A stretch of DNA of 61,879 bases from Bacteroidota bacterium (lineage in GTDB: Bacteria > Bacteroidota > Bacteroidia > AKYH767-A > JAHEYN01). The notes beneath the pieces were generated by a model. That model saw only the letters and a list, made by a program, of their open reading frames with translations. It searched no databases and was not told the origin of the DNA. The stretch spans positions 1-61,879 of the forward strand of contig CANFOZ010000005.1 of the NCBI GenBank assembly GCA_947448795.1, read 5' to 3'. Position numbers and translations under genes: made by a program. The stretch's first letter is position 1. Every line of letters begins with the position of its first letter. Of the stretch, positions 14,543 to 61,879 are shown in pieces.

Positions 14543-14772
14543 GTTGTAAGGATAGCGCATAAACCCAACTCCATGCAGCGCTCTTCGTTTAAACGGCACA
14601 TCCAATCGCTGAACTCCACATATCAGGTTCTTAGGAAAAATAAAATACCGCTTGTATTACATTATTGCTCATTAGCCTATGAAATTCAACCCATACTTTA
14701 TACTGTGATGTTTGTTTTTAATTAAATGTTAAATTTGATACCGTTATCATGTAAAATAGGAGAAATATGTTA

Positions 14773-14784
14773 CCCCCCCCCCCC
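14773..14784 (+). repeat. C12 homopolymer upstream of a response regulator
   Basis: Twelve consecutive C in an otherwise AT-rich intergenic region. Confidence 0.9.
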
Positions 14785-14883
14785 ATTTTTGCAGGGCATC
14801 CTGCTCTTTAACTATGGAGCGCGGTGTTTTCAAAATACCAATTGCTTTTTTTTGATAAAAGCAGTAACAAAAATTAGGTTTTT

Positions 14884-15267
14884 ATGAAGACACTTTTGAT
14901 TATTGATGACTCAGCGCTGCTCGTTGAAAATTTAGCCGAGTTTTTTGAATTGCAAGGGTATCGCGTTATAACGAGCACGAACGGAAAGGATGGCCTGAAG
15001 CTTGCTAATAAGGAGCTCCCCGATCTAGTAGTCTCCGATATTTTAATGCCTCATTTGGATGGGCACGAGGTTTGTATCGCATTGCATAATCACGTAAAAA
15101 CAAGAAATATCCCCTTTGTCTTTAGCTCAGCGCGTTCCGAGCAAAAAGATCAAAACAGCGCACTTGAATTAGGCGCTGATGCCTACCTGGTGAAACCGTA
15201 CGATCCGCATGAACTTTTAGCGGTTGTGGAGAAGTTACTTGGCAAAAGCACCTTCAGAAAAGATTGA
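14884..15267 (+). CDS. Orphan single-domain response regulator
   Basis: LLIIDD, VSDILMPHLDG, FSSAR and YLVKPY motifs. Confidence 0.9.
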   Translation: MKTLLIIDDSALLVENLAEFFELQGYRVITSTNGKDGLKLANKELPDLVVSDILMPHLDGHEVCIALHNHVKTRNIPFVFSSARSEQKDQNSALELGADAYLVKPYDPHELLAVVEKLLGKSTFRKD

Positions 15268-15449
15268 TAATCAAGGTTTTGAAAAAAACCGAAGGATTCT
15301 CGCGTTTTTACCGTCTAAATAGCGTTGGTTTAGCAGGGCATTTGCTAGGTTTTTTTATTTCGTAAAATGACCAAAATCCAAACGAAAATTTATAAGTTTG
15401 TGCTTTGTAAGCACGCTTAACAGAGTATTATTATAAATTCTACAAATCT

Positions 15450-47364: not shown

Positions 47365-48420
47365 CTACAAAAACCGAACGTTTTTGAGTGATCCTTCCCG
47401 CGATTGCTTAATCGGTTTAATGTAGCTAATCAATAATTCCGGTCCCGCTTTTACTTTGCTTGCCGAATGTAAATTAGAGATGTTCAAATCATAACTAAGT
47501 CCTAGTTTGTAGTCTTGGAATTCCATTCTTCCAGTTAGGATGATGGCATCCTTGCTGCGATACCAGCAGCCCAAGTAGAGGGCACTCGCTTTCTTTGCGC
47601 CGGTGTAGCGCGAACTTTGTCCAAGGCCATAGCGTATGTTAGTTCCAATAACCAACTCGCTTGCTGTGCCTTGTTTCATAAACCAATATCCGGGATTCCA
47701 AGAGATGTTGCTGTTAGGAACTCCAAGAAGCACCATGCCATGCACTACTAAACGCATTTTAAGCGGGTCGCCTTCGGTCTTTAATGGATTGGTGTTAGGG
47801 GTGTTTAAATGATGTATAGCGATGCCGTTACTAATACTTAATCTCCGGTTTCCCGCGTTGCTCTCTCCTTTGTTGAATTGCCATAAAAGGCCGCCTGAAA
47901 AGTCGGTATAAAAAACTTGACCGCTACCTCCACTCTCACCAGAAGGAAGTCCTTGGTTGTAATCCATACCGTCGTATTGGCTGCCCCATTGGTACGCCGA
48001 ATAATCGATGCTGCGTTGCGCAAAAGTGGCTTGCAATCCTGAGGATAGTAAATGGTTTTCAGAAAGCATTTGGGTTGATGATAAGAAGACATTCGCGCCC
48101 TGGTTGCGCAGCTTCCCATCCCCTGCTTGATCAGAGAAGATCATTAACCCAGTGCCCAAAAATCCTTTGCTCCATCGGTTTTTCATCAGCGGAGCATCAA
48201 TGCTTGCGGCCATCGTACGAAAGGGAACGGTGATGCTGTTCCACTGGTTGCGGTAGTTCATCGTTACGCGCAGGTCGCCCGTAAAAGATCCTGTGCAAGC
48301 CGGATTTAAGTGCATCGGACTAACTGCTGCCTGCGACAAGTGCATGTCTTGTGCCTTTGTTTCTGATGCTAGGAGCAGTGCAGCACACGTCACTGCTAAA
48401 AAGGTTCTTAGCTTATTCAT
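47365..48420 (-). CDS. PorP/SprF-family T9SS outer-membrane barrel
   Basis: QDMHLSQ...LNPACTG...NYRNQW, SDQAG and GLSYDLN motifs. Confidence 0.9.
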   Translation of the reverse strand: MNKLRTFLAVTCAALLLASETKAQDMHLSQAAVSPMHLNPACTGSFTGDLRVTMNYRNQWNSITVPFRTMAASIDAPLMKNRWSKGFLGTGLMIFSDQAGDGKLRNQGANVFLSSTQMLSENHLLSSGLQATFAQRSIDYSAYQWGSQYDGMDYNQGLPSGESGGSGQVFYTDFSGGLLWQFNKGESNAGNRRLSISNGIAIHHLNTPNTNPLKTEGDPLKMRLVVHGMVLLGVPNSNISWNPGYWFMKQGTASELVIGTNIRYGLGQSSRYTGAKKASALYLGCWYRSKDAIILTGRMEFQDYKLGLSYDLNISNLHSASKVKAGPELLISYIKPIKQSREGSLKNVRFL

Positions 48421-51400
48421 GAATGAGGGTGATATTGCCTTTTTTGGTAACTTCTTCTCCGTTCTTCAAAGTTGCATGCAAGTAATAAATGAATACATTT
48501 TCATTCATCAAAACGCCTTTTAATTTTCCGTCCCAACCAACAGTTTTGTCGTTTGTTTGAAAGACTTTCTCTCCCCATCTATCGAAGATCATGAATTCTA
48601 AAATAGTGATGCAGTTGCCATATACATAAAGCACTTCGTTATTCCCGTCGTTGTCAGGCGAGAAGGCGTTGGGCACAAATACATTGCCGCACTTGTTTTC
48701 TACAATCACGCGAACAGTGTCTGTGCTGCTACATCCATTAGCATCGGTGAGGGTGAGGGTATACGTAGTCGTCGTCTGTGGGTTGGCTAAAGGATTTGGA
48801 CAGTTGCTGCAACTCAATCCCTCAGCAGGTGTCCATGCATAGCTAGGCTGCATTGCATTGTCGGTGCTGCTAATTTGAACAGGCACGCTGTCGGCTACGG
48901 TTAGCGTTGGTCCTGCATCAAGCGATACCGCAGCGGCTTGTTCAATGTTGAAGGAAATAGCACTGCTGCACCCCGCGCTGTCTGTTATCGAAACACTATA
49001 GCTTCCCGCTTGCAAGCCTGTAACTCCTGCTCCGCTAGATCCGTTGCTCCAGGTAAAACTATAAGGTGGTATACCAGCTACAGGTACGATGTTCGCCGAG
49101 CCCGTGTTTGCTCCATTGCAGGCCACATCGCTCGTGCTTACCAAGCCTGCTGCTGGCGTCGACGTGTTGATGGTTATGGAGTCTATTATGCTGCATCCAT
49201 TGACATCGGTAACGTTAATAAAATAGATCCCTGCGGCCAAGCTTGAAAGGGTTGAATCACCTATTGCGCCTGTATTCCATTGATAATTTATCGGGCCTGT
49301 TCCCCCATTAGCCAAAGCTAATGCGCTGCCATTCGCATTGCCACACGTGGTGTTTATTACGGTTACGGATAATTGAAGAACAGGGGGAGCTGCTATCGTG
49401 AAGTTTTGATTGCTTGTACAGCCAGCGGAATCGGTTATGGTGAGTGTGTAATTGCCTGCCGGTAAATTGCTTGCACTGCTTGCATTGCCGCCAATCGGAC
49501 TCCATGCATAAACATACGGTGTTGTGCCGCCAGTAACACTGGTGTTTATCACGCCGGTGCTATCTCCATTGCAAAGTAAGCCGGTGCTGTTTTGTGTAGC
49601 AATACTTGGCGCATTGGTATTGACAACAACCGCGGTGTCTATGATGGAGCAGCTGTTAGAGTCGCTAACAGTAACATAGTAGCTACCTGAAGCGAGTCCC
49701 GTTATAGTGTCGTTTGTTTGACCCGCCGAGGCCCAATTGTAGGTCAGTGTGCCAGTGCCACCAGATGCCGTTACCCAGGCCGAGCCATTGCTAATACCAC
49801 AAGCAGCAGGCGCAGAAAAAGTCGAGGAGAGGAGCGGCGCAGGATCGATAATAGTCACAGTTACAGGATAGCTGTTTCCGTTTGCATCGCTTACGGTTGC
49901 CGTATAATTTCCGTCGCATAATCCAGTTGCTGTTTGGGTCAATTGGCCGTTACTCCAAGAATAGGTATAGGGACCCGTGCCTCCAATCGGTGTTGCTGTT
50001 GCACTTGCATTGCAGGCGCCGGGGCAGGTTGGCGTGGTGTGTGCTTCCGAAGCCATCATGGATGTGAAGCACTGCGCCGGCATCGGGTTGCAAGCGGCTA
50101 TGTTTACACTGCTGACAAAGCCATTGCCGCAGGCGATAACATTGCCGCTACTCGTTACATCAACATCATACACGGCTCCACTTGTTGCAGAAAAAGAAAG
50201 CTGCGTGAGGGCCGCATCAAATTTATATACACCGCTTGTTGAGCCCACATAAATGTTCCCGCAACTGTCGATATCAAGTCCGCTATTGCCCGGGGTGTTG
50301 CCACCCACGAAAGGCACCGTGCTTGAAACTCCGCCAGGAATGGTCACGCTGTTGATAATGGCTCCGGTGCTTAAGTTTCGGCGGTGAAGCGTTGTTCCGT
50401 TTTGGGTATATAAATAAACCGAATTCGCTCGCATCGCACTGATGCCTTGGTTCGTAGAGCCATATGCAGGGATTCCATAGGTAAAGTTGTACGTACTGCT
50501 GGTTTGATAATCTACCGTTAAGCCGCTATTCAAAGCGCCGATCGAGTCTAATGTTAAATAATAGTATTTGCCGTTCGGACCCGAGCAAATGGAGCGTACT
50601 TCTTTGATCGTGGGGATAAATCCTCCAGTAGTGTAGCCAACATCCAAGTAGCTCGAAATGCTTCCGTTTGCTAGGTTGATTTTCATGATCGAGCCTCGAT
50701 AACTGGATGTGGAGAATGGGCTAGGTGTGCGCATACCGCCAATCAAGAGCTCCGTGTAGTCGCAGTTGAAAGCCATATGCCAGTACTCGAAAAGGGGACC
50801 AAAAAGTCCGTTTGGATTGTTGTACCACACAGAGCTGCCCGAAGGGTTAATTTTGCGAAGCTCGCCGTTGGCACTAGACGTGATGTAACTGTTGCCGGAT
50901 GGGTCCACGATGAAGGTGCCAATCCAAAAATTTGTAGTATCCCAAGCCGTGGTGTAAGTCCACTGCAAAGTACCTGTAGTGCTGTATTTTTTGAGCACCA
51001 TCGGCATCTCGCCTCCGTAAATAAAAACATTGCCCGCTGCATCTGTTTCGGTTTCCCAGATTTTGTTTGAGCTTGGCAATGCAGGCGTAGCCGTCCATGG
51101 ATCGATGATGAGCGTGCTGCTATGGTCGTAGTTATCGATATGAAAACGAACAACATCTCCGCTGCGTTCAAAGCGGGATGCAATAAAATGGCCTTGCTCC
51201 GATTCTAAATAACTGCTCGGGGCATGATCCACGATGGCTCCGAGTGGTGTTTTAAATACAAGCTCTCCATCGGTGTTTAAAGTCCAAGGCCGATCCGATT
51301 GAATCCGCATAGCAATGGCATTCACGTCTCCACCGGGATGAACAAGAAATGCATATTTGATACCCCTTTCAGGGTGAATAGTATACACGAGATCAATATG

Positions 51401-51853
51401 TGGATACAGGTTTTTATAGACCAGGCGCTTGTACCCTTTGATATGAGCTACCTCATGCTCACTACTAATAAGCGCTGTTTCCTCATCACTGGTTACATCT
51501 TCAGCTATTAGCAGGCTTGCTGGACTTCTGTTTACCCATTCAATTCGAACATTCCCGGTTTGTTTTTCAAGTTTCTCATTTGCCTCCCGCTCTGCGCCCC
51601 ATTCGCGTTTTGGTTTGAATTTATCGATACGCCAGCTCATGCCGTCTTGGGTAAAAAGCGCCCTGATAGGGCCTTCTGTGTATCCGAAAAGAATGCGTGA
51701 TCGAATATCACGGCTCAGTCCATCCAGTTGTGCACGATTCTCTCTGAATACCGCATCGCCAGGTCGTGTTTGTTTCCACGACGGATTGCCCGCCTGTAAA
51801 CTAAATGTAAGAAGCACAAGCAATTGGATAAACAGGAATGTAATTGTCTTCAT
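48413..51853 (-). CDS. Large T9SS type B cargo (SprB-repeat adhesin with gliding-motility-associated CTD)
   Basis: Signal peptide from MKTITFLF; YKNLYPHIDL...IIDP N-terminal domain; propeller-like region; SprB repeats (GGTGPYTYSW, VTDVNGC); PNAFSPDNDGNN...FDRWGE...WDG CTD. Confidence 0.88.
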   Translation of the reverse strand: MKTITFLFIQLLVLLTFSLQAGNPSWKQTRPGDAVFRENRAQLDGLSRDIRSRILFGYTEGPIRALFTQDGMSWRIDKFKPKREWGAEREANEKLEKQTGNVRIEWVNRSPASLLIAEDVTSDEETALISSEHEVAHIKGYKRLVYKNLYPHIDLVYTIHPERGIKYAFLVHPGGDVNAIAMRIQSDRPWTLNTDGELVFKTPLGAIVDHAPSSYLESEQGHFIASRFERSGDVVRFHIDNYDHSSTLIIDPWTATPALPSSNKIWETETDAAGNVFIYGGEMPMVLKKYSTTGTLQWTYTTAWDTTNFWIGTFIVDPSGNSYITSSANGELRKINPSGSSVWYNNPNGLFGPLFEYWHMAFNCDYTELLIGGMRTPSPFSTSSYRGSIMKINLANGSISSYLDVGYTTGGFIPTIKEVRSICSGPNGKYYYLTLDSIGALNSGLTVDYQTSSTYNFTYGIPAYGSTNQGISAMRANSVYLYTQNGTTLHRRNLSTGAIINSVTIPGGVSSTVPFVGGNTPGNSGLDIDSCGNIYVGSTSGVYKFDAALTQLSFSATSGAVYDVDVTSSGNVIACGNGFVSSVNIAACNPMPAQCFTSMMASEAHTTPTCPGACNASATATPIGGTGPYTYSWSNGQLTQTATGLCDGNYTATVSDANGNSYPVTVTIIDPAPLLSSTFSAPAACGISNGSAWVTASGGTGTLTYNWASAGQTNDTITGLASGSYYVTVSDSNSCSIIDTAVVVNTNAPSIATQNSTGLLCNGDSTGVINTSVTGGTTPYVYAWSPIGGNASSASNLPAGNYTLTITDSAGCTSNQNFTIAAPPVLQLSVTVINTTCGNANGSALALANGGTGPINYQWNTGAIGDSTLSSLAAGIYFINVTDVNGCSIIDSITINTSTPAAGLVSTSDVACNGANTGSANIVPVAGIPPYSFTWSNGSSGAGVTGLQAGSYSVSITDSAGCSSAISFNIEQAAAVSLDAGPTLTVADSVPVQISSTDNAMQPSYAWTPAEGLSCSNCPNPLANPQTTTTYTLTLTDANGCSSTDTVRVIVENKCGNVFVPNAFSPDNDGNNEVLYVYGNCITILEFMIFDRWGEKVFQTNDKTVGWDGKLKGVLMNENVFIYYLHATLKNGEEVTKKGNITLIHE

Positions 51854-51951
51854 GCGAACAAATTTAGCATTGTTTTTTATTCTTAACACCTTTTTTAAAC
51901 CTTTGTATTTCTGCTTTGTCAAAGCAAAAATGTAAATTTCAAAGATAAACC

Positions 51952-53595
51952 ATGAGCCGAATAGACTATTCTCGCTTCTCCTTGCTAGTTATCTTTTTGC
52001 TAGCCCAGCTTGCAGTTCACGCACAAACATTCGATATTGTTCTCGGACGACCAACAGGTTCATCCATTACAGCAAGCGTCATGTTCAACCAAGCCGAAGA
52101 GTTCTATTTCGAATACGGTACCTCTTCGGGTGTATACAACGCTTCATCAATCAATTTTACCGCTGCTCCCAACGTACCCGTAGAGGCCGATATAACTGGT
52201 CTAACTGCGAACACGCTTTATTATTATCGACTGAAACACCATGCTGTCGGTGCTTCCACCTATAACACAAGCTCCGAGTATACATTCCATACCCAGCGTG
52301 CCGTAGGCAGTGAGTTCTCCTTCACGGTAGAAGCCGATGAGCACCTCTACGATAAAAAAGGTGTGCAGAGCATTTACAATATATGCTTGGATAATCAAGC
52401 CAAGGACAAGCCTGATTTTATGTTCTCCCTGGGCGATACCTTCGGTGATGACCATACGGCCTTTACCATCACCTCAGACACATTAGACGAATTGCATCGC
52501 TTCTATCGTCCTTTTCTCGGACGTATCACCCACTCAGTGCCGTTCTATTTCTGCTTGGGAAATCACGAGGGAGAGAACGACTATTACATGCTGCAGAATC
52601 CGCCGAACAACTTGGCCATTATGGGTACGCTTTGGCGCAAATACTATTATCCGAATCCGTATCCGAACAACTTTTACACCGGTAATACAGAAGTAGAACC
52701 TTATGGTGTTGGCACTCCGGAAAACTATTATGCATTCACATGGGGCAATGCCTTATTCGTGGTGTTGGACGTCTATCGAAACGAATGCGACACATCGCCG
52801 AAGCCACAAGGTTGGAACTGGTCTTTGGGTCAACCGCAATACGATTGGCTGAAAACTACCTTGGAAGGAAGTCAAGCCCAATATAAATTCGTGTTCGCAC
52901 ACCATGTGCGTGGTCAAGGCCGCGGTGGAATTCTAGAAGCGAAGTTGTATGAGTGGGGTGGCTACGAGCAAAATGGAACATCCTACACCTTTCCGGCAAA
53001 CAGACCAACAATGGCCAAGCCCATCCATCAACTTTTTATTGATAACGGCGTGACGATTTTCTTCCAAGGCCATGACCACGTCTTCGCGCACGAAGTGATG
53101 GATAACATCACCTACCAAGCGGTACCGATGCCAAGCGATTCAACCTATATGATCGGCAAATTAGCCAATGCCGATGCGTATGTTTCAGACACACTCGATG
53201 GAACAGGACATATCCGTGTGAAAATCAATCCTACTTGCGTAAAGGTGGATTATGTAAAAGCGTACTTGCCCGCCGATACCTTGAGTGGCCAACATCACAA
53301 CGGCGAAATCGGATTTACCTATACGCTCGGTACATGTTCACCAACCGGCATAAGCAAGCCCGGACTCGAACAGGCTGTGATGGTCTATCCGAATCCCGCA
53401 AAAGATCTGCTGGTCGTGCAGCTACCCCCTGAACTCGAAAAGTATCGTATTCGCTTGCTGAACCTCTTGGGACAAGAAGTATTGAATACGAGATCAACGA
53501 GCATTGATGTGCGCGCCCTTCCGAGCGGAGTGTATATTATGTCTCTGGAATCGGCTCAGGTAACCCTTACTCGCAAAGTCATCATCAACCATTAA
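51952..53595 (+). CDS. Calcineurin-like/purple-acid-type metallophosphoesterase with N-terminal FN3-like domain and T9SS CTD
   Basis: ADEH, LGD, GNHE, FAHH and GHDH metal motifs; YPNP...GVY...KVII CTD. Confidence 0.88.
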   Translation: MSRIDYSRFSLLVIFLLAQLAVHAQTFDIVLGRPTGSSITASVMFNQAEEFYFEYGTSSGVYNASSINFTAAPNVPVEADITGLTANTLYYYRLKHHAVGASTYNTSSEYTFHTQRAVGSEFSFTVEADEHLYDKKGVQSIYNICLDNQAKDKPDFMFSLGDTFGDDHTAFTITSDTLDELHRFYRPFLGRITHSVPFYFCLGNHEGENDYYMLQNPPNNLAIMGTLWRKYYYPNPYPNNFYTGNTEVEPYGVGTPENYYAFTWGNALFVVLDVYRNECDTSPKPQGWNWSLGQPQYDWLKTTLEGSQAQYKFVFAHHVRGQGRGGILEAKLYEWGGYEQNGTSYTFPANRPTMAKPIHQLFIDNGVTIFFQGHDHVFAHEVMDNITYQAVPMPSDSTYMIGKLANADAYVSDTLDGTGHIRVKINPTCVKVDYVKAYLPADTLSGQHHNGEIGFTYTLGTCSPTGISKPGLEQAVMVYPNPAKDLLVVQLPPELEKYRIRLLNLLGQEVLNTRSTSIDVRALPSGVYIMSLESAQVTLTRKVIINH

Positions 53596-53613
53596 TTTCA
53601 TAACCTCCCATTT

Positions 53614-55335
53614 ATGAAACTGCTGAACCCCATTCTTCTTGTATTGCTCTTTACAGGTCTTCTGAGCACCGGTAAGGCCCAGAATATGATGTTTTCGGAG
53701 CTACTCGGCCGACCTACAGACCACAGCATCACCATTCAAGCCTTCTTTGCTGATTCGGTGGAAATGAGCATTCAATATGGCACTAACCCGGGTAATTATA
53801 CGAGTCAAACTGCTTGGCAAGCCTTCTCGGATAGCATGCCTGCTGAAGTTGTAGTGAGCGGTCTACAAGCGGATACGCGGTATTTCTATCGCATGAATTA
53901 TCGCTTGCCCGGCTCCACGAATGTGATACAGCGTCCGGAGTATACCTTTCAAACCCAACGCTCACCGGGCCGTACCTTCTCTTTCGTTGTAGAAGCCGAT
54001 CCGCACCTCGATGCGCAAAGTGACTCCACTTTGTATAAGCTCTGTCTGCAAAACCAACTCGAAGATCAACCGGATTTCATGATTGATTTGGGTGATGTGA
54101 TGATGACCGACAAGCTGCGCAATGCTTCCAATGTGGTGCCGCACGACACCGTACCCTACCGTTGTAAATTATTTCGGTCCTATTACCAGCGTTCATGCCA
54201 CTCAATGCCCTTGTTCATGGCACTGGGAAACCACGAAGGCGAAGCAGGTTGGTACAACCTTGGTCAAGGGAATGATATGTCTATCTGGGACTCGCAAGAG
54301 CGCAAAAAGTATTTCCCGAACCCCATCCCCGATAACTTTTACAGCGGAGATACAACGAATAATCCATTCGTTGGGGTGCGCGAGAATTTCTACACCTGGC
54401 AATGGGGTGATGCGCAGTTCATCGTGCTCGATCCCTATTGGTACACCATGACCAAGCCCGACTCTTTGCATGGCTGGTATTGGTCCTTAGGCAAACCGCA
54501 ATACGATTGGCTAAAACGCACACTCGAGAACAGCACTGCAAAATTCAAGTTTGTTTTTGCCCACCAAATCATCGGTGGCGACCCTGAAGGACGCGGCGGT
54601 GTTGAATATGCCGACAAATATGAATGGGGTGGCAACAACCTCGATGGAACGCCCGGTTTTGCCGCTAATCGCCCGGGATGGTATAAGCCAATCCGTGAAT
54701 TATTAGAGGAAAATCACGTGAACATATTCTTTCACGGCCACGATCATTTCTTCGGCAAGCAAGACCTCAACTGTCTCGTCTATCAAGAGGTTCCGCAGCC
54801 GAGTCACCCCAATTTTAGTACTGCAACCTATGCCACCACATACGGCTATGTGCAAGGACAAATTTTGCCAAACTCCGGACACATGCGCGTGACCGTCATG
54901 GATACCGTCGTCAAAGTTGAATATGTGCGCGCCTATCTTCCTCAAAATGAAAACGGCACGCGACACAACAAAGATGTTTCAGCTAGCTATTTTATACCGG
55001 CATTCAATTGCTACGACTCCCTTTCAATGAGTACGCCCGTTATATGGAATAGTAACTACGGCGAAGACATCGCGTATCCGAATCCTTTTAGTCATGAAAC
55101 GGTGATTCCGGTGGATGTGCCGTCAACAATGCCTTTGCGCTTGGTTATTCTTGATCCCCTAGGCCGTGTCGTGCGTACCTTGTTGAATGGTCACACACTC
55201 GAACAAGGATCTTACAAATTGGTGTGGGATGGCTTGGATGCCAATAACGGTCAGCTTCCATCAGGCAATTATTCCTTCATGCTTACAGGTAATGCCGGTT
55301 TGTTGAAAACAGGCAAGCTCGTATTGATCAGATGA
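53614..55335 (+). CDS. Paralogous metallophosphoesterase with FlgD-Ig/T9SS-type CTD
   Basis: ADPH, LGD, GNHE, FAHQ and GHDH motifs; YPNPF...GRVVRTL...WDG...SGNY...KLVLIR. Confidence 0.88.
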   Translation: MKLLNPILLVLLFTGLLSTGKAQNMMFSELLGRPTDHSITIQAFFADSVEMSIQYGTNPGNYTSQTAWQAFSDSMPAEVVVSGLQADTRYFYRMNYRLPGSTNVIQRPEYTFQTQRSPGRTFSFVVEADPHLDAQSDSTLYKLCLQNQLEDQPDFMIDLGDVMMTDKLRNASNVVPHDTVPYRCKLFRSYYQRSCHSMPLFMALGNHEGEAGWYNLGQGNDMSIWDSQERKKYFPNPIPDNFYSGDTTNNPFVGVRENFYTWQWGDAQFIVLDPYWYTMTKPDSLHGWYWSLGKPQYDWLKRTLENSTAKFKFVFAHQIIGGDPEGRGGVEYADKYEWGGNNLDGTPGFAANRPGWYKPIRELLEENHVNIFFHGHDHFFGKQDLNCLVYQEVPQPSHPNFSTATYATTYGYVQGQILPNSGHMRVTVMDTVVKVEYVRAYLPQNENGTRHNKDVSASYFIPAFNCYDSLSMSTPVIWNSNYGEDIAYPNPFSHETVIPVDVPSTMPLRLVILDPLGRVVRTLLNGHTLEQGSYKLVWDGLDANNGQLPSGNYSFMLTGNAGLLKTGKLVLIR

Positions 55336-55363
55336 TTACATTTACTAATACAAAACAATAACC

Positions 55364-56968
55364 ATGAAAAAAGTACTCACCTTGCTACTGCTGATTTTCG
55401 CATCAACAGCTTTTGCCCACGATTTGAATTACGAACGCGTGATTGCGCGGACCTGGCACAAGCAACACGATGGTCGTGAGTTACACGGTACTTTTTTCAT
55501 GCACAAAGCGGATCGGGTGTATCTGCAGGATGCACAAGGTGCTGTTTTTACGGTTTATTTTAACGATTTGTCGGCTGCCGACCAAGCATTTGTTCAAGCC
55601 AAGGATAATCAAATTGCACGTTTGAATTCATTCAATACATCGGTTTCAAATCCGGAAGTCGCTCAATCAGTTCCGTATGGTAAATATGCTTTTGTTTTTT
55701 GCCTGCTTTTGCTGGCGGGTCTATTGGCTATGCGTTTCCTTGAAAAACAAAGTTTGCGCTATGTGCTGCCGGTATTGGGTTTTGGAGTGATGACATTGCT
55801 ATACAGCTTCTCTGGAAAGCCATTGCACATGCTGCAAGCTGCCAACGATCCAATCGCGATGGATTCGGCTTTCGCCCCCTTCCGTCCGAACGTGCATACC
55901 TTTTGGGACGCTACGTATTTTCATGTTGAATCGCGAGGGATACCCGCTACGCACGAAATGATGGTGGGCATCTCCAACCACGGCTGGCAGCAACAAGTGC
56001 CGATTCCGCAGTGTTACATGGACACGAACTCATGGAGCATTCCATTGAATCCGGTCATGGCCGCGAGTCCAATTCCGGTTGATTCCGTTCATTTCACACG
56101 CGGAGCGATTGCTATCGCCGTGAACGGGGTGCCAATTTTCAACGTACACACGAATACCGGCGTCGATTCTTACTTAGATGGTCAATTGGATATCTACGGG
56201 GGCCATTGCGGTCGTGCCGATGATTACCACTATCACACAGCACCGCTTAGCCTTTACAGTTATACAAGTGCGCATCTTCCGATTGCCTATGGACTTGATG
56301 GCTTTGCTGTTTACGGCTCTATTGAGCCCGATGGCAGTGCCATGCAGACACTGGATGCGAATCATGGTCACTTGGGTACCAATGGCGTGTATCACTACCA
56401 CGGCACCGCAACTGCACCGTATATGATTGCAGCCATGGCCGGCGAGGTAACAGAAGATGCAACCCATCAGCTCATTCCGCAGCCGGCAGCACATCCGGTG
56501 CGTCCATCCCTCACACCGCTCAATGGTGCTTTGATTACCGCGTGTACTCCAAATGCGAACAACAACGGGTATAATCTTACCTATACGCTCAACGGTGTTA
56601 CCGATTCGGTTGTTTACAGCTGGACTAACAATGGTCAGTATGCCTTTAATTTTTACGTGAATGGTGTTTTAACCACCAACAATTACAATGGTTTCACGCA
56701 ATGTACGGTGCCACTTACTCCGGTAGGAATTACGCCAGAAAATAGTGTGGCAACAGAATTAAACATCTATCCAAATCCGGTTACAAAAACACTGTATCTC
56801 AAGGGTGCTGCTGGTTTAGTTCGCATCTATTCCATAGATGGGAAACAAGTTTTTATGTCCAACGCAACAGTTCAAACCATCGATGTAAGTCGATTTGACA
56901 GAGGGCTCTACATGCTATCTGTAGAGAATGAAAAAGGCCGTGTTACCAAGAAGTTCATCGTCCAATAA
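55364..56968 (+). CDS. YHYH-domain protein with SHD1-like N-domain, two TM helices and T9SS CTD
   Basis: RTW...LSAADQAFV (SHD1-like), two hydrophobic helices, GAIAIAVNGVPIFN, GHCGRADDYHYH, DGFAVYG, LDANHGH...YHYH and YPNP...KKFIVQ. Confidence 0.85.
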   Translation: MKKVLTLLLLIFASTAFAHDLNYERVIARTWHKQHDGRELHGTFFMHKADRVYLQDAQGAVFTVYFNDLSAADQAFVQAKDNQIARLNSFNTSVSNPEVAQSVPYGKYAFVFCLLLLAGLLAMRFLEKQSLRYVLPVLGFGVMTLLYSFSGKPLHMLQAANDPIAMDSAFAPFRPNVHTFWDATYFHVESRGIPATHEMMVGISNHGWQQQVPIPQCYMDTNSWSIPLNPVMAASPIPVDSVHFTRGAIAIAVNGVPIFNVHTNTGVDSYLDGQLDIYGGHCGRADDYHYHTAPLSLYSYTSAHLPIAYGLDGFAVYGSIEPDGSAMQTLDANHGHLGTNGVYHYHGTATAPYMIAAMAGEVTEDATHQLIPQPAAHPVRPSLTPLNGALITACTPNANNNGYNLTYTLNGVTDSVVYSWTNNGQYAFNFYVNGVLTTNNYNGFTQCTVPLTPVGITPENSVATELNIYPNPVTKTLYLKGAAGLVRIYSIDGKQVFMSNATVQTIDVSRFDRGLYMLSVENEKGRVTKKFIVQ

Positions 56969-56975
56969 AAGCACA

Positions 56976-58202
56976 ATGAAACTTCTTTTTACTGCGTTCT
57001 TCACCGCGCTGACTGGCTTTGCATATGCGCAATACAACGGCACGGGTTCTGTAACACAAGGCCCTGCCGCAACTGTATTTAGCAACATGTACACCTGCAC
57101 CGGCGGGCGTGTGACGAATGTCGGCACCATCACGGCAAGCGACAACACCGTGTGGACAGTGCCTGCAGCTGTGAATTTTCAAAGCAGCGCATTTCCCTTT
57201 GCATCCGATCTTTACAATCCTTGTACCGGTCCTTTGTATGCCAATACAGCAGCTGCTTTGGCAGCTCTAACCGGCAGCGATACCATCACCATTGATACAG
57301 ATGGAGAACTGATTACGGCTTTTGTTTTTGCCGATAATTATTTTGAGATGTACATCAATGGAACCGCTGTTGGTAAAGACGATGTGCCCTTCACGCAGTT
57401 CAACTCAAACATCATCCGCTTCCGTGTGAAACGGCCATTTACCATCGCCATGCATTTGGTCGATTGGGAAGAAAATCTCGGCCTGGGTTCTGAAAACAAC
57501 AACGGCTTTTCCTATCATCCCGGCGATGGCGGCATGGTGGCTGTTTTTAAAGATGCGAGTGGCAATATCATTGCAAAAACTGGATCTGATTGGAAAGCGC
57601 AAACCTTTTATACCGCACCGATTACCGATCTTGCTTGCCCAACTGAAACGGGTGCCCTGCGATCTTCATCTGCTTGCAGCACCGCCGACTCCAACAACGG
57701 AAGTCAATACTATGGTTTGCATTGGGCTTTGCCAACGAATTGGATGGATGCGGCCTACAACGATGCCGATTGGCCGAACGCAAACACATTTACCAATGCT
57801 GAGATTGGCGTGAACAACAAACCGGCGTACACCAATTTCACCGATATCTTCGATGCACCTGCCAAAGATGCCGAATTCATCTGGAGCAGCAACGTCATTC
57901 TCGACAACGAAGTGATCGTGCGATATAAAGTTTTAGCGGCATCAATACCAAGTGATAAATCGCTCTTGCAACCCATCGAGCTAATTCCCAACCCCGCTTC
58001 TAAATTCGTCGACATACGCGCCGCTGCTGACATGAAACCAGGATCCATTGAAATTTTCAACACCTTGGGTGATTGTGTTTATACATCAGTCGGCTCTGAA
58101 ACACGCATTGACACAAGCACTTGGCCTTCGGGTTGCTATGTCGTGAAATATACCTCCAGCAACGGCTCACAGTTCCGCAAACTCATTATCCAGTCCAATT
58201 AA
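56976..58202 (+). CDS. Uncharacterised T9SS cargo with jelly-roll-like domain
   Basis: Signal peptide from MKLLFTAF; FADNYFEMYING, WMDAAYNDADWPNA and AEFIW motifs; PNPA...GCY...KLIIQ CTD. Confidence 0.75.
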   Translation: MKLLFTAFFTALTGFAYAQYNGTGSVTQGPAATVFSNMYTCTGGRVTNVGTITASDNTVWTVPAAVNFQSSAFPFASDLYNPCTGPLYANTAAALAALTGSDTITIDTDGELITAFVFADNYFEMYINGTAVGKDDVPFTQFNSNIIRFRVKRPFTIAMHLVDWEENLGLGSENNNGFSYHPGDGGMVAVFKDASGNIIAKTGSDWKAQTFYTAPITDLACPTETGALRSSSACSTADSNNGSQYYGLHWALPTNWMDAAYNDADWPNANTFTNAEIGVNNKPAYTNFTDIFDAPAKDAEFIWSSNVILDNEVIVRYKVLAASIPSDKSLLQPIELIPNPASKFVDIRAAADMKPGSIEIFNTLGDCVYTSVGSETRIDTSTWPSGCYVVKYTSSNGSQFRKLIIQSN

Positions 58203-58211
58203 TAAAGCATT

Positions 58212-59393
58212 ATGAAGTTCAAAATCTCGCTCTTATTGCTGCTTTTCATCAGCTCAATGTCCATTGCGCAAACGGTTGTGAAAACGATGAAGCGCTTGCC
58301 GGATACAGGGCAAACAATGAGCTATACAAGCACTGCTGGCGAGGACAACGACTACAGCATAAACACCCCATCCTTTATTGATCATGGAAACGGCACCATC
58401 ACCGATACCATCACGGGTTTAATGTGGATGACAATGGACGGTGGCGAGATGACCATCGAAAATGCTCGATTGTATGCAGATACCTGCACTGCATCCGGCT
58501 ATAGCGATTGGCGCTTGCCCTTGCCAATCGAATCGTATAGTATCCTGAATCATCAGGCAAACAACCCGGCCATTTTCTCAACCTACTTCACCAGTACGAC
58601 GGCGGAATACTGGTGGACTTCAGTCGTGCAATGCAACGACAGCAATAAAATATGGGCGACAAATGCCGGAGGAGGAATCGGTAATCATCCCAAAACAGAA
58701 ACCATCAGCGCCGGTGGAACAAAGCATTTTCATGCTCGCCTCGTACGCGATGTGCAAACACCATTTATCCTAACCGACCGATACACCAATCAGCAAGACG
58801 GAACGTTTCGCGATGAGCTGACCAACTTGGTTTGGCAGCAGACGGCGCTTACAGATTCTATCACCTGGGAGGATGCCTTGCATTATGCCGACACCTGTGC
58901 GTTGGCCGCACACAGCGACTGGCGTTTGCCCAATGTGAAAGAAATTCAATCCCTCAACGAAGAATCGCATTTCGGCCCATCCATCAACACAAACTACATA
59001 CAAAATGTGGGTGTTGGAAAGGTGTGGTCATCCACCTCGCTGCCGAATCAAACCGCGAAAGCCTGGTATTTAGATACACAATACGGCATCACCACGTATC
59101 AAAACAAGATTAACAAATTAAAGGTTTTGTTGGTGAGAGGACCTGAACAACCCGCTATTCCTAGTGCTGTGCACCCTGAATTTGAGAAGCCGGCTGATCA
59201 TGCGTTTCCGAATCCATTTCACAACACCATTCATCTTTTAGGTGACAAAGAGCAGAACGCTGTATTGTTCACTATCTTGGGTGAATGTGTATATGCAGGG
59301 AAAGACATTGCCGCACAGGATTTTTCCAAATTACCGGCAGGTGTGTATATCTTAAAGACGCCGATGTACACCGAGAAGTTAATCAAGCAATAA
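58212..59393 (+). CDS. Tandem DUF1566 (Lcl C-terminal, C-type-lectin-fold) protein with T9SS CTD
   Basis: LPDTGQT; two DxxTxLxW...WRLP...WxS repeats; FPNPF...GVY...KLIKQ. Confidence 0.85.
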   Translation: MKFKISLLLLLFISSMSIAQTVVKTMKRLPDTGQTMSYTSTAGEDNDYSINTPSFIDHGNGTITDTITGLMWMTMDGGEMTIENARLYADTCTASGYSDWRLPLPIESYSILNHQANNPAIFSTYFTSTTAEYWWTSVVQCNDSNKIWATNAGGGIGNHPKTETISAGGTKHFHARLVRDVQTPFILTDRYTNQQDGTFRDELTNLVWQQTALTDSITWEDALHYADTCALAAHSDWRLPNVKEIQSLNEESHFGPSINTNYIQNVGVGKVWSSTSLPNQTAKAWYLDTQYGITTYQNKINKLKVLLVRGPEQPAIPSAVHPEFEKPADHAFPNPFHNTIHLLGDKEQNAVLFTILGECVYAGKDIAAQDFSKLPAGVYILKTPMYTEKLIKQ

Positions 59394-59400
59394 GGCTTTC

Positions 59401-59967
59401 ATGAACACGGGGTCGCTTATTTGGCAGTATCTGCAGATCGGCTTCACGCATGTCTTGCCGCTCGGTTTCGATCATCTTTTATTTATCCTCACCTTGTTTT
59501 TCATGCCGGGCGGCTTCCGGTCGATACTGCTTGCCTGCACCATTTTTACATTGGCACATTCCCTATCGTTAGCCCTTGCAGCAAGCGGTTTGGTGCTGCC
59601 TCAAGCCAACCTCATTGAACCCTTTATCGCCTTGTCAATTGTTATTTCTGCTTTAGGCAATATCGTAAGCAAGGAAGAGGGCAGATGGAGGTACCCGCTC
59701 GTTGGACTCTTCGGACTTATTCACGGCTTGGGTTTTGCTTCAGCGCTTAAAGACGCTGGCCTGCCATCCAAAGGATTTTTTACCGCATTGATATCATTTA
59801 ATGTCGGTGTGGAGCTCGCGCAAATTAGCGTGCTTTTAATCGCTTACGTTTTGGTAACGATACCTTTCGGCGCTAAAACATGGTATAAAACGCGATTAGC
59901 GTATCCCTCCTGCGCAATTATCGCCGCGGTAGGCATGTATTGGCTAATAGAGCGATCAATCGTTTAA
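59401..59967 (+). CDS. HupE/UreJ-family membrane protein (putative Ni/Co permease)
   Basis: GFTHVLPLGFDHLLF, FTLAHSLSL, FGLIHGLGFA and FNVGVELAQ motifs. Confidence 0.88.
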   Translation: MNTGSLIWQYLQIGFTHVLPLGFDHLLFILTLFFMPGGFRSILLACTIFTLAHSLSLALAASGLVLPQANLIEPFIALSIVISALGNIVSKEEGRWRYPLVGLFGLIHGLGFASALKDAGLPSKGFFTALISFNVGVELAQISVLLIAYVLVTIPFGAKTWYKTRLAYPSCAIIAAVGMYWLIERSIV

Positions 59968-59976
59968 AAGCAAGAT

Positions 59977-61551
59977 TTATTGCTTGATCAGTTTTTGAGT
60001 TTGGCCTCCGCTTGCTTTTAAAAAGTACACCCCACACGGAAGCGTTGAAAAATTTTGCTTTTCCAAGTCCTTGCCTTGAAAAATGGTTTGTCCCAGCGCA
60101 TTCGTTAGTCTAAAGCTAGCTGTTGGTTCAGGATTTTTAACATGTAAATACCCATTGAATGGATTCGGATAAACCAAGCTTTCTGCTTGTCTACTTATCG
60201 ATTCAATACTGACACCCGGCGTGCAAAAAACGCTGCTACCAACAAGATTACTCATTTGATTGCAGAGGTAAATGTAATTCGTCGCAGCTTCCGAGCTAAG
60301 TGTGTCTAAAAGTAAGTTAATCAGTTCTGAAGGGTCGGATGCCAAATGATAAAACTCTTCTCCGCCGTAATCGAAGCGAATGAGTTTGTAATCCATGTTC
60401 CGCATCGCCTTCCCATCCATCGAATCGGTGGTTGTTTTAAACACTTCGGTAAAAGTCCAAGGGCGAACGCTCTGGCTTTGATTCTTGATGATAGGGACAA
60501 TGCTTTTACTGTCACACGTATCGCTTGCAGGTATTTGCGATTGCCAATTGGTGTTCCCCATCAATTCTTGCGTCGTGGCGAAGATGTCTGCTAAATTGAC
60601 CAAGGCATCTGAACTTCTTCCGGGATTGACAACAGATGGACCCGCAACCACGAAGGGAACATGAACTCCATATTGGTAAAGAGATCCTTTGGCTCTAGAG
60701 GTATCCGCAATCTGTGCGGATGGTTGGGCATTCCCATTGTCACCAATGAAAATGAAATCGATACTGTCAAGAATGTTCAGTGTTTGTAAAGAGTCGAACA
60801 TGCGGCCGACTTCGTGATCGAGGGCTTCAAGATCGGCTTTGAAATACTTCTTTGGGTTGTTGTTGATGTCGCCCGCTGCTCCGCTTAAGGTCAGATCCGA
60901 ATACATACCGGCCGGCGGTAGGTGATAAGGTTCGTGCGGGGCATTGAAGGAAAGCCAAAGAAAAAAATCTTGGGTGTAATGTGCTTGAATCCATGTGATC
61001 GCGTCATTGGCCGTCTCTGTTGTGGCGTAATTGGTACAGGTGCTTACCACGCCGTCGGTTACCTTCGACCAATTGTAAAAGCTGGTCAGTGTTCCGTTGA
61101 AGTTGCCCGCATAATGGTCATACCCCATGATGTTCGGATTGTTCAGGTTTGGCAAGGCCTGTACTTGCAGATGCCATTTGCCGGTGTTCGCCGTGGCGAT
61201 GTTCGGGTTGTAATTTTTGAGCGCTTTTGGAATACTTAATTCAGACGTGCTCAATGGATTTGACCCGCCCATGCCGCCAACCACGCCGCCAACGCCAGTG
61301 CGAAAAGCGTACTTTCCCGTGAATATCGATGCTCTCGTAGAGGAGCAATACGGGTTAGACATAGCATTGTCGAAGCGAATGCCTCGTGCCGCCAAAGAGC
61401 GTAAATGCGGGATGTTCGCCGTGTCCACATGATCGGGGTAGAAGCCGCACCAATCCGTGCCCAAATCGTCAGCGATGATTAAAATGACTCGGCGTTGTGC
61501 ATGCACGCTGAGCGCAACTAGCATTAAAAAAAGAAACACTAGTTTTTTCAT
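59977..61551 (-). CDS. Sulfatase (formylglycine type) with T9SS CTD
   Basis: IIADDLG, CSSTRASIFTG, GKWHL, NAPHEP, GDNG and KGSLY motifs; YPNPF...KLIKQ CTD; start MKKLVFL. Confidence 0.9.
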   Translation of the reverse strand: MKKLVFLFLMLVALSVHAQRRVILIIADDLGTDWCGFYPDHVDTANIPHLRSLAARGIRFDNAMSNPYCSSTRASIFTGKYAFRTGVGGVVGGMGGSNPLSTSELSIPKALKNYNPNIATANTGKWHLQVQALPNLNNPNIMGYDHYAGNFNGTLTSFYNWSKVTDGVVSTCTNYATTETANDAITWIQAHYTQDFFLWLSFNAPHEPYHLPPAGMYSDLTLSGAAGDINNNPKKYFKADLEALDHEVGRMFDSLQTLNILDSIDFIFIGDNGNAQPSAQIADTSRAKGSLYQYGVHVPFVVAGPSVVNPGRSSDALVNLADIFATTQELMGNTNWQSQIPASDTCDSKSIVPIIKNQSQSVRPWTFTEVFKTTTDSMDGKAMRNMDYKLIRFDYGGEEFYHLASDPSELINLLLDTLSSEAATNYIYLCNQMSNLVGSSVFCTPGVSIESISRQAESLVYPNPFNGYLHVKNPEPTASFRLTNALGQTIFQGKDLEKQNFSTLPCGVYFLKASGGQTQKLIKQ

Positions 61552-61556
61552 ATACT

Positions 61557-61879
61557 TTAGTTTTTTCGATAAAAAATAGCGCATCCAAAAGTGTCGGTCT
61601 CGGGTTTACTGACCTTTTTACCTTGCAGCAATTCGTCTACCGCTTCGGTGATGTATGTGTGCTGGACTTTCTCGGGCTCTGCGCCATTATCATCAATGGC
61701 ACCTGCATAACGAATGATCCACTTACCCTGCTCTTTCCAAAGTACGAATGCATCCGGTGTGTGGTCAGCAGCAAAGGCTCTGCCAACATCCTGCTTGCCA
61801 TCTTGCAGATAGGGGAAGGCCCACTTTTCGTGCTCTGCCCAGGCCTTCATTTGTGCGTAATTCTCATCTTCATAAATCA
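61557..61879 (-). CDS. Redoxin/thioredoxin-like (AhpC/TSA) protein, 5'-truncated by the window edge
   Basis: Frame open to the window end; FPYLQD, HTPDAFV, YAGAIDD and FGCAI motifs. Confidence 0.82.
   Translation of the reverse strand, partial: IYEDENYAQMKAWAEHEKWAFPYLQDGKQDVGRAFAADHTPDAFVLWKEQGKWIIRYAGAIDDNGAEPEKVQHTYITEAVDELLQGKKVSKPETDTFGCAIFYRKN

Follow-up and report, generated by a model that had tools for sequence, protein, structure and literature searches.

A recurrent module of T9SS cargo genes around a YHYH protein in Bacteroidota, possibly a stress- or metal-responsive surface enzyme system

The gene cluster and its products

We analysed a stretch of 61,879 nucleotides of a Bacteroidota bacterium (contig CANFOZ010000005.1 of assembly GCA_947448795.1; the whole stretch is hereafter called the window) and focused on eight genes near its end, which surround a gene for a protein with a YHYH domain. 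We read these eight as a local representative of a gene module that is widespread and moves horizontally. Six of them form a block on the + strand, with gaps of 18, 28, 7, 9 and 7 nt (the third counted from the ATG at 56976). The remaining two lie on the - strand; the block and the pair converge and their stops are separated by 9 nt. A preliminary description of this DNA had reported six close-packed genes meeting a sulfatase-redoxin pair, and the coordinates of the open reading frames (ORFs), taken from the ORF list with translations, as well as the gaps confirmed this layout. Its family calls (metallophosphoesterases, YHYH, DUF1566, HupE, sulfatase and redoxin) were likewise confirmed by Pfam and NCBIfam. 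The Pfam cut-offs were 21.5 bits for Metallophos (PF00149), 25 for YHYH, 34.9 for Lcl_C (the former DUF1566), 24.5 for HupE_UreJ_2 (PF13795) and 30 for Pur_ac_phosph_N; the curated cut-off of TIGR04183, the type A sorting domain of the type IX secretion system (T9SS), was 23 bits. The genes, and the stretch 5' of the first of them, were as follows.

51854..51951, + strand: intergenic stretch 5' of MPE1; its sequence was inspected and contains no motif of the extracytoplasmic function (ECF) type
51952..53595, + strand: MPE1, secreted calcineurin-like metallophosphoesterase (Metallophos 37.8 bits; Por_Secre_tail 47 bits; TIGR04183 44.9 bits)
53614..55335, + strand: MPE2, paralogous metallophosphoesterase with a FlgD_ig-like C-terminal domain (Metallophos 38.2 bits; FlgD_ig 35.4 bits)
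55364..56968, + strand: long-form YHYH protein (YHYH 42.9 bits; Por_Secre_tail 50.2 bits; TIGR04183 48.4 bits)
56976..58202 (ORF opens at 56928), + strand: UNK, a T9SS cargo whose only match is the sorting domain (TIGR04183 42.3 bits)
58212..59393, + strand: Lcl_C protein (Lcl_C 151.8 bits, in two stretches; TIGR04183 26.2 bits)
59401..59967, + strand: HupE_UreJ_2 inner-membrane protein of 188 aa (HupE_UreJ_2 146.5 bits; HupE_UreJ 36.8 bits)
59977..61584, - strand: S1-type sulfatase with a T9SS sorting domain (Sulfatase, PF00884, 127.9 bits; TIGR04183 38.3 bits)
61557..61877, - strand: 3' part of a ResA/TlpA-like thiol-disulfide oxidoreductase (redoxin), continuing past the window end (weak AhpC/Redoxin match of the fragment)

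The promoter of the six-gene operon must lie in 51854..51951. Five products (MPE1, YHYH, UNK, Lcl_C and the sulfatase) passed the TIGR04183 cut-off. MPE2 gave no TIGR04183 match in the Pfam and NCBIfam scans and ends in FlgD_ig instead; of the six T9SS C-terminal domains that had been counted among the eight products, five are thus certain and the sixth, the FlgD_ig-like end of MPE2, is just probable.

The long form of the YHYH protein consists, from its N-terminus, of a signal peptide, an invariant His, an SHD1-like domain, two hydrophobic segments, the YHYH domain (approx. residues 160-400 of the window protein), a beta-rich domain and the T9SS sorting domain. The Pfam match (PF14240) covers model positions 1-110 of 193. 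Over residues 160-460 the protein was 70-80% identical to most of the 120 homologues listed, whose source labels, where given, were Saprospiraceae, Chitinophagaceae, Chitinophagales and Bacteroidia, all of them Bacteroidota. The motifs DDYHYH and YHYHG were invariant in an alignment of homologues. Across 82 diverse YHYH members the residues H281, D286, D287, Y288, H289, Y290, H291, D312 and D331 were invariant, and H197 and H346 nearly so.

An AlphaFold (AF2) model of the YHYH domain, made with an alignment of diverse members, reached a pLDDT of 95.7. When the domain was compared with the PDB by Foldseek the best E-value was 0.32, i.e. no solved fold was matched; a VIA-wide structure comparison gave at best a Z of 5.9 over 60 residues of the C-terminal beta-meander, and a sequence search of the PDB returned nothing relevant. 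The absence of a structural match fits the label "novel fold" of the N-Zinclopedia preprint, although it would not prove novelty; in the available part of that preprint PF14240 is listed among uncharacterised candidates for a novel fold, and a three-His site is predicted for it. In the part of Iyer et al. (PMC7824862) available to us, YHYH is predicted to be a hydrolase that requires a metal and has three His and one Asp; fusions to phage tail and lectin domains are noted there. Based on these published predictions and on the conservation of His and Asp, metal binding by YHYH is predicted. A complex prediction of the YHYH domain with Lcl_C scored 0.00 and, as a run without controls, is evidence neither for nor against an interaction.

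A small residue followed by His stands directly behind the signal peptide in 69 of 78 long-form YHYH proteins, the window's included, as found by a simple pattern search, so that the mature protein would start with His. The two hydrophobic segments are followed by a motif [S/G/A]-F-[T/S/A/G] before the YHYH domain, which resembles a second signal-peptidase site. Membrane-spanning segments in this N-terminal third of the protein (window 55364-55840) are odd in a T9SS cargo, and cleavage of the long YHYH protein may leave its N-terminal part anchored in the membrane and yield a secreted YHYH part.

UNK probably starts at the ATG at 56976. It matched no Pfam family besides the sorting domain and was 65-74% identical to most of 120 listed homologues, with labels including Saprospiraceae, Ignavibacteria, Kapaibacterium and Flavobacterium; in total 2023 matches had an E-value of at most 1e-3. 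Four Cys are invariant. The protein deserves a family of its own. Its AF2 model was poor (pLDDT 58.7), the Foldseek matches were driven by the sorting domain, and those in the ESM Atlas were unnamed clusters (0.83-0.86); no conclusion on the fold was drawn.

The Lcl_C protein carries two C-type-lectin-like Lcl_C stretches (PF07603) and the sorting domain, and no PDB chain was matched by its sequence at an E-value of 0.1 or below. In HupE the first hydrophobic segment contains H-x6-DH and the second FTxAHS; the motif G[FY]xHV[IL]PxG[FWY]DH was conserved in 35 sequences, i.e. 34 orthologues and the window's own.

The metal-ligand motifs of both metallophosphoesterases (DxH, GD, GNHE, H, GHxH) could be read from the translations, those of MPE1 as DEH, GD, GNHE and GHDH. 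MPE2 is approx. 40% identical to MPE1 (tblastn paralogy), and Pur_ac_phosph_N scored 24.2 and 24.6 bits on the two proteins, which is below its cut-off. Residues 33-427 of the sulfatase align to a kappa-carrageenan sulfatase, and GalNAc sulfatases in the PDB were also aligned. The sulfatase probably starts at its second Met, at 61551. Its nucleophile motif is C-S-S-T-R and not the canonical C/S-x-P-x-R; the Cys and the Arg are retained. Among sulfatase orthologues of related loci (L052-L099), the redoxin-linked subgroup has C-S-[S/A]-T-R, and a subgroup placed between Lcl_C and HupE has the canonical C-S-P-T-R. Approximately the first 97 codons of the redoxin gene lie beyond the window end. 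The fragment aligns to residues 100-203 of a full-length orthologue; such full-length orthologues matched AhpC-TSA with an E-value of 4e-18 and resemble ResA/TlpA.

Directly 5' of the operon, and divergent from it (47365-51922), lie the gene of an SprB-repeat protein and a PorP/SprF-type partner gene. Besides a DUF7948, the SprB-repeat protein has a sorting domain of type B (CHU_C); its gene overlaps the PorP/SprF-type ORF by 8 nt (48413-48420).

Recurrence in other genomes and gene fusions

Of 40 genomes from the same order, six (G009, G014, G021, G025, G033 and G037) encode a full-length YHYH protein. The remaining matches to the YHYH query in these relatives were to the sorting domain alone, with the exception of G010, which gave two partial YHYH-domain matches (E-values 1e-12 and 2.5e-9). 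All six YHYH-bearing relatives keep the order YHYH-(UNK)-Lcl_C-(HupE), some together with MPE1-MPE2 or redoxin-sulfatase. G033 has redoxin-sulfatase-YHYH-UNK-Lcl_C-HupE on one strand and G025 has MPE1-MPE2-YHYH-UNK-Lcl_C-HupE; the others have shorter versions, two of which are cut by contig ends. The Lcl_C orthologue occurred in exactly the six YHYH genomes, and UNK in five of them. The metallophosphoesterase family was present in three of the 40, in two of these within the YHYH cluster. HupE_UreJ_2 was distributed more widely (18 of 40, a count that includes the unpublished genome G018). As the 40 relatives are kin, such co-inheritance counts overstate independence.

A wider scan with one genome per species gave at least 590 stretches encoding relatives, of which the best 80 loci were analysed. 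The metagenome-assembled genomes behind them were labelled Flavobacteriales, Chitinophagales, Saprospiraceae, Cytophagales-type, Ignavibacteria and Kapaibacterium, and contig ends truncate many of the loci. A tblastn search, in which matches had to span half of the query or more, detected Lcl_C in 68 of the 80 loci, MPE2 in 38, HupE in 34, UNK in 33, MPE1 in 32, redoxin in 16 and sulfatase in 14. The 32 loci with at least 8 kb upstream and at least 5 kb downstream gave Lcl_C in 29, HupE in 15, a metallophosphoesterase in 15 and UNK in 13. Lcl_C lay downstream of YHYH in 51 of the 56 loci having at least 4 kb downstream. Altogether 335 of 337 module genes were on the strand of YHYH (locus L096 was dropped from this count and from the flank-limited ones, its YHYH ORF not being clustered), among them the sulfatase (15/15) and the redoxin (16/16). 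Since the module genes of relatives share the YHYH strand, the convergent sulfatase-redoxin pair of the window is an exception.

All eight families thus recurred beside YHYH in other species, and the co-occurrence on which the preliminary description had let its proposal depend was found.

The same partners were found joined to YHYH in single polypeptides. When 1.84 billion representatives were searched by HMMER with the YHYH domain, 1298 clusters at 50% identity were obtained (E-value at most 1e-3). Of the 150 YHYH representatives listed we scanned 39, chosen from proteins that exceed 600 residues. Fusions to Metallophos (10), PEBP/PBP (10), Sulfatase (7), Lcl_C (5) and HupE_UreJ_2 (1, P0282) were detected; further ones were to EF-hands (11), SHD1 (2), BACON (1), a fucosidase with F5/8 (1) and a PhoD-like match alone (1). 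In six of the 39 the YHYH domain stood alone, with or without a sorting domain. For 82 longer UNK homologues a precomputed Pfam column listed YHYH in 74, Lcl_C in 42, PEBP in 26, Metallophos in 4 and Sulfatase in 3; 81 carry YHYH and/or Lcl_C, and one has neither. Source names on the UNK fusion proteins included Verrucomicrobiota, Pseudoalteromonas, Shewanella salipaludis, Thalassotalea insulae and Saprospiraceae. We concluded from these patterns that YHYH, UNK and Lcl_C behave as one unit, and that the esterases and the permease are true partners, not bystanders. In the window this core is split into three T9SS cargoes; in Verrucomicrobiota, Gammaproteobacteria and other Bacteroidota it is one polypeptide. 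The data support a grouping beyond chance, i.e. a real, co-inherited module that is co-regulated in relatives and has YHYH-UNK-Lcl_C as its core.

Some further arrangements were observed. A YHYH-BACON protein with a sorting domain lies inside the array of one locus (L059:2934-5111). In relatives without YHYH (L107-L118) a HupE_UreJ_2 paralogue stands behind a DUF4331 protein of approx. 692 aa and a TPR protein of approx. 445 aa, in 12 of 12 loci; genes for ECF/RskA-type anti-sigma, a TonB-dependent receptor, YceI and DUF5777 lie near this triad in some of them, and in L117 it occurs together with redoxin, arylsulfotransferase and UNK. A literature search on DUF4331 found nothing. Hydrogenase or urease genes were absent among the recurrent neighbours in the 80 loci and these 12.

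Regulatory genes, further neighbours and the promoter motif

All ORFs of the 80 loci were clustered de novo and representatives were scanned against Pfam and NCBIfam. The head of the array in relatives was formed by an ECF sigma factor (17 loci), a single-pass protein of approx. 100 aa (11 loci and unlabelled equivalents) and a Spy-like protein (20 loci). The latter is membrane-anchored and helical, with a weak PF13801/LTXXQ match (PF13801 25.7 bits vs a cut-off of 29.2). Its profile matched Spy best in the PDB (E-value 3e-4) and also ZraP; no CnrX chain was found at an E-value of 10 or below. Thirteen loci encode a multicopper oxidase that carries a sorting domain and matches CueO best. Other neighbours were a short YHYH paralogue (8 loci), an MbnH-like protein (7), MbnP (6) and an arylsulfotransferase with a sorting domain (6); thioredoxin-like proteins (4), KatG (3) and YceI (3) were rarer. 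MbnP (Pfam 131.7 bits) and MbnH (CCP_MauG 170.6 bits), both of which score under the NCBIfam equivalog cut-offs, lie directly 5' of the YHYH paralogue in several loci. The fullest one-strand arrays (L069, and L041 without the sulfatase) read ECF, small protein, Spy-like protein, oxidase, arylsulfotransferase, redoxin, sulfatase, YHYH, UNK, Lcl_C and HupE. An animal haem peroxidase with a sorting domain was seen inside the array of a single locus (L076:7231-9285).

An ECF-type motif, approx. CCAGAA-N13-TCGTCTAA, was found upstream of both ECF and YHYH genes in relatives. As the pattern C[CAG][AGT]G[AG][AT]-N12-14-nCGTC[TCA][AT]A it occurred 36 times in 2.43 Mb (80 loci, both strands), and 30 of these sites were located 0-108 nt 5' of module genes on the module strand: 12 before YHYH, 11 before small anti-sigma-like ORFs, 4 before ECF genes, 2 before the oxidase and 1 before MbnP. 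It was present in 18 of 104 module upstream regions and in none of 308 upstream regions belonging to non-module genes of these loci. Independent support for the argument comes only from this control and from the finding of one motif before both the ECF and the YHYH genes.

The genome studied here carries the corresponding genes on other contigs. Contig C59 (14560-17800) encodes an ECF sigma factor (about 14671-15210), an 83-aa single-pass ORF, a Spy-like protein and a CueO-like oxidase, and ends 70 nt past the oxidase, in a signal-peptide-like ORF start. An exact end overlap between C59 and the window end (61879) was not found. C59 and the window may nevertheless abut, giving ECF...oxidase-redoxin-sulfatase converging on the six-gene operon, because the window ends inside the redoxin, C59 ends in an ORF start, and the gene order in relatives agrees. 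The redoxin is part of the ECF/oxidase arm, which in this genome is on another contig. MbnP-MbnH is found on contig C8 and the short YHYH paralogue on C81.

Across the genome, 7 sites match a local form of the motif, CGAAGG-N14-18-CGTC[TA]AA, compared with 1.6 in shuffled sequence. The genes with such a site on their 5' side include those of an M43 peptidase and the short YHYH paralogue, as well as the ECF gene and the small ORF. A relaxed genome scan with 80 matches had been too permissive and was superseded by this stricter one. The M43 site lies in the window (15285-15320, CGAAGG-N17-CGTCTAA), approx. 130 nt 5' of a gene (15450-18329) whose product, an M43 metallopeptidase of 959 aa, bears a T9SS sorting domain; judged by this site the metallopeptidase may belong to the same regulon. 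A near-match at 56932 was rejected, as its spacing is wrong and it lies within the coding end of YHYH.

Possible functions and comparison with known systems

The reading we favour, tentatively and at somewhat less than an even chance, is a surface enzyme system that responds to stress or metal; YHYH would be its metal-dependent catalytic subunit and HupE would handle the metal. It is favoured because of the enzyme-like conservation of YHYH and its fusions to esterases, an anion-binding domain and lectin-like modules. From the gene order, the co-inheritance, the fusions and the motif in relatives, all of which are observed, we infer metal binding, catalysis, substrate, signal and transport direction along these lines. 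An envelope-stress or metal signal would switch the system on; the ECF sigma factor with the small membrane protein and the Spy/ZraP-like periplasmic protein would drive the whole set, as in relatives. The lectin-like Lcl_C and the beta-rich UNK would position the catalytic YHYH subunit, and together with the phospho- and sulfo-esterases YHYH would act on ester-decorated extracellular substrates, while the HupE-type permease would handle the matching metal at the inner membrane. A bolder version would make YHYH the catalytic core of an unrecognised class of surface metalloenzymes, maybe a copper redox enzyme matured by MbnH, with UNK and DUF1566 as obligate partners, sulfated or phosphorylated polymers or organic esters as targets, metal- or stress-dependent ECF control and a metal feed by HupE; this we regard as a long shot.

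Several observations weigh against the surface enzyme system or limit its basis. The 80 loci represent the best-scoring relatives and lack phylogenetic independence. The esterases are lacking from about half of the loci and are therefore not obligatory. Glycoside hydrolase or SusC/D genes did not accompany the module, which argues against a standard role in polysaccharide utilisation. The promoter motif was derived from the same upstream regions in which it was later counted. Within 51500-61879 of the window no ECF-type motif was found, the best position weight matrix score being 6.8 vs 12-38 for the training sites; as the window operon has no motif, ECF control of the eight genes is deduced from relatives only. 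The oxidase of related loci and C59 scored 369 bits vs the CueO equivalog cut-off of 525, and the Met-rich insert of CueO was absent from the 15 oxidases examined (14 of the cluster and that of C59), so that copper is not established as the metal.

The strongest competitor, which we consider somewhat unlikely, is a homeostasis island for a transition metal, most likely copper. YHYH would then be a non-enzymatic, His-rich protein for metal sequestering or transfer, the phosphatases would release phosphate that precipitates metal at the surface, and HupE, MbnP/MbnH, the oxidase and the redoxin would cooperate. Phosphatase-driven metal precipitation is known in Citrobacter/Serratia and Caulobacter and speaks for such an island. 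So do the CueO-like oxidase, MbnH and MbnP (13, 7 and 6 of the 80 loci), often directly 5' of the YHYH paralogue, the one HupE-YHYH fusion and the invariant His behind the signal peptide of the long form; in addition, the DUF4331-TPR-HupE triad, with a TonB-dependent receptor and ECF/anti-sigma in some loci, resembles an uptake system. The trio of ECF, small membrane protein and PF13801/Spy/ZraP-like protein matches metal-stress groups of Casas-Pastor et al. as given in the available part of that work; the PF13801 match, however, is under its cut-off. Very high conservation of a domain of 300 residues, approx. 20 polar ones being invariant, would be expected of an enzyme more than of a metal carrier, and the same applies to the fusions to lectin-like, BACON, F5/8 and fucosidase modules and to two kinds of esterase. 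Moreover the oxidase lacks a Met-rich segment, and neither an efflux pump nor a P-type ATPase was among the recurrent neighbours. Plain scavenging of phosphorus and sulfur from dissolved organic esters in nutrient-poor lake water, with YHYH, UNK and Lcl_C as further hydrolases or binding proteins and with metal-type regulators and permease that supply cofactors or are unrelated, would agree with two secreted phosphoesterases resembling purple acid phosphatases (PAPs), with the sulfatase, and with the fusions of YHYH to Metallophos, PhoD-like, sulfatase and anion-binding PEBP domains. All public datasets listed for the stretch are metagenomes of lakes, rivers or other freshwater, one of them from a biofilm and none an RNA run, and point the same way as a weak indication of habitat. 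Yet about half of the loci are without an esterase and retain YHYH-Lcl_C, the module is headed by the ECF/Spy-like trio and by nothing like a Pho regulator, and no phosphate or sulfate transporter recurs nearby; we regard such scavenging as improbable.

An extracellular oxidative system is about as doubtful as the bolder enzyme class described above. It would make YHYH a new redox metalloenzyme, e.g. one with copper and a Tyr/His-derived cofactor installed by the MauG-like MbnH; oxidase and peroxidases would act on phenolic or polymeric substrates, and the esterases would strip sulfate and phosphate. The order MbnP-MbnH-YHYH paralogue in L036, L097 and L104 (with intervening genes in L085 and L059) is in line with it, as are the multicopper oxidase (13 loci), KatG (3), animal haem peroxidase (1) and arylsulfotransferase (6) in or beside the arrays, the invariance of DDYHYH and YHYHG, and a YHYH fold without a solved relative. 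All of this is context, however, and cofactor chemistry cannot be read from a sequence; MbnP/MbnH adjoin the short paralogue and not the long form of the window, and the partners occur in a minority of loci and are absent from the window. Alternatively, T9SS cargo genes without a shared function might have accumulated by chance in a genome rich in them; sorting-domain matches in all 41 genomes searched and the SprB-like/PorP pair directly upstream could be cited for this. The synteny across 80 species, the identical patchy phyletic patterns and the gene fusions exclude it, barring assembly artefacts, and its probability is negligible.

Two large families without assigned function are involved, YHYH with its 1298 clusters and UNK with more than 2000 homologues. 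The module gives both a concrete setting among DUF1566, PAP-like phosphoesterases, sulfatases, PEBP and a HupE-type permease, to which a dedicated sigma factor with a recognisable promoter motif is added, and it would give the HupE_UreJ_2 and DUF1566 families a role. Cultured carriers exist: YHYH-UNK fusions, mostly with PEBP, are found in Pseudoalteromonas, Shewanella salipaludis and Thalassotalea insulae, and a UNK homologue in Flavobacterium luteum. As the carriers are abundant heterotrophs of lakes, rivers and the sea, the module may bear on the processing of dissolved organic phosphorus, sulfur and trace metals in natural waters.

The overall interpretation of the preliminary description is partly supported. 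Its statement that no characterised system has such a composition agrees with our literature searches, which found no description of the module; papers on YHYH were partly covered and their supplements were not, so mentions are possible. Searches on MbnP/MbnH with a multicopper oxidase in Bacteroidetes gave nothing, and those on T9SS, copper and ECF gave no such system by title or abstract. Judged from these searches, a module of YHYH, UNK, DUF1566, esterases and permease appears to be previously undescribed in print.

Parts of the module can be compared with known systems. HupE/UreJ proteins such as the HupE of Rhizobium and of cyanobacteria are nickel/cobalt permeases. The window HupE shares with them the Pfam match and the His...Asp-His in the first membrane segment; unlike them, it belongs to the divergent _2 subfamily and has no hydrogenase, urease or B12 genes nearby. 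MbnP/MbnH, a copper-site protein and its di-haem maturase, are encoded 5' of the YHYH paralogue in related loci and on C8 here, but neither within the window nor next to the long YHYH form, and no methanobactin genes accompany them. The C-terminal domain of Legionella Lcl (DUF1566) is, according to the available part of PMC11162425, C-type-lectin-like and binds sulfated glycosaminoglycans as a trimer, so that the earlier statement that DUF1566 is without established function no longer holds in full. The window protein resembles Lcl by its Lcl_C sequence, which it carries in two stretches, and a sulfatase is a recurrent neighbour; in contrast to Lcl it has no collagen repeats and would be exported by the T9SS and not by the type II secretion system. 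The three esterases, by family matches and catalytic motifs, resemble purple-acid/PhoD-type phosphatases and S1 formylglycine sulfatases, and differ from the phosphatase and sulfatase systems described in the literature searched by their fixed partnership and fusion with YHYH, UNK and DUF1566.

The available part of Casas-Pastor et al. relates ECF groups to heavy-metal stress via a "heavy-metal resistance protein at +2". With these metal-stress modules (ECF281/ECF290, with CnrYXH of Cupriavidus as the studied cousin) the relatives and C59 share the gene order and an ECF promoter motif that looks autoregulatory. They differ in that the trio lies outside the window, that PF13801 is under its cut-off and that the profile matches Spy/ZraP; unlike in CnrYXH, the targets are secreted T9SS proteins and not an RND efflux pump.

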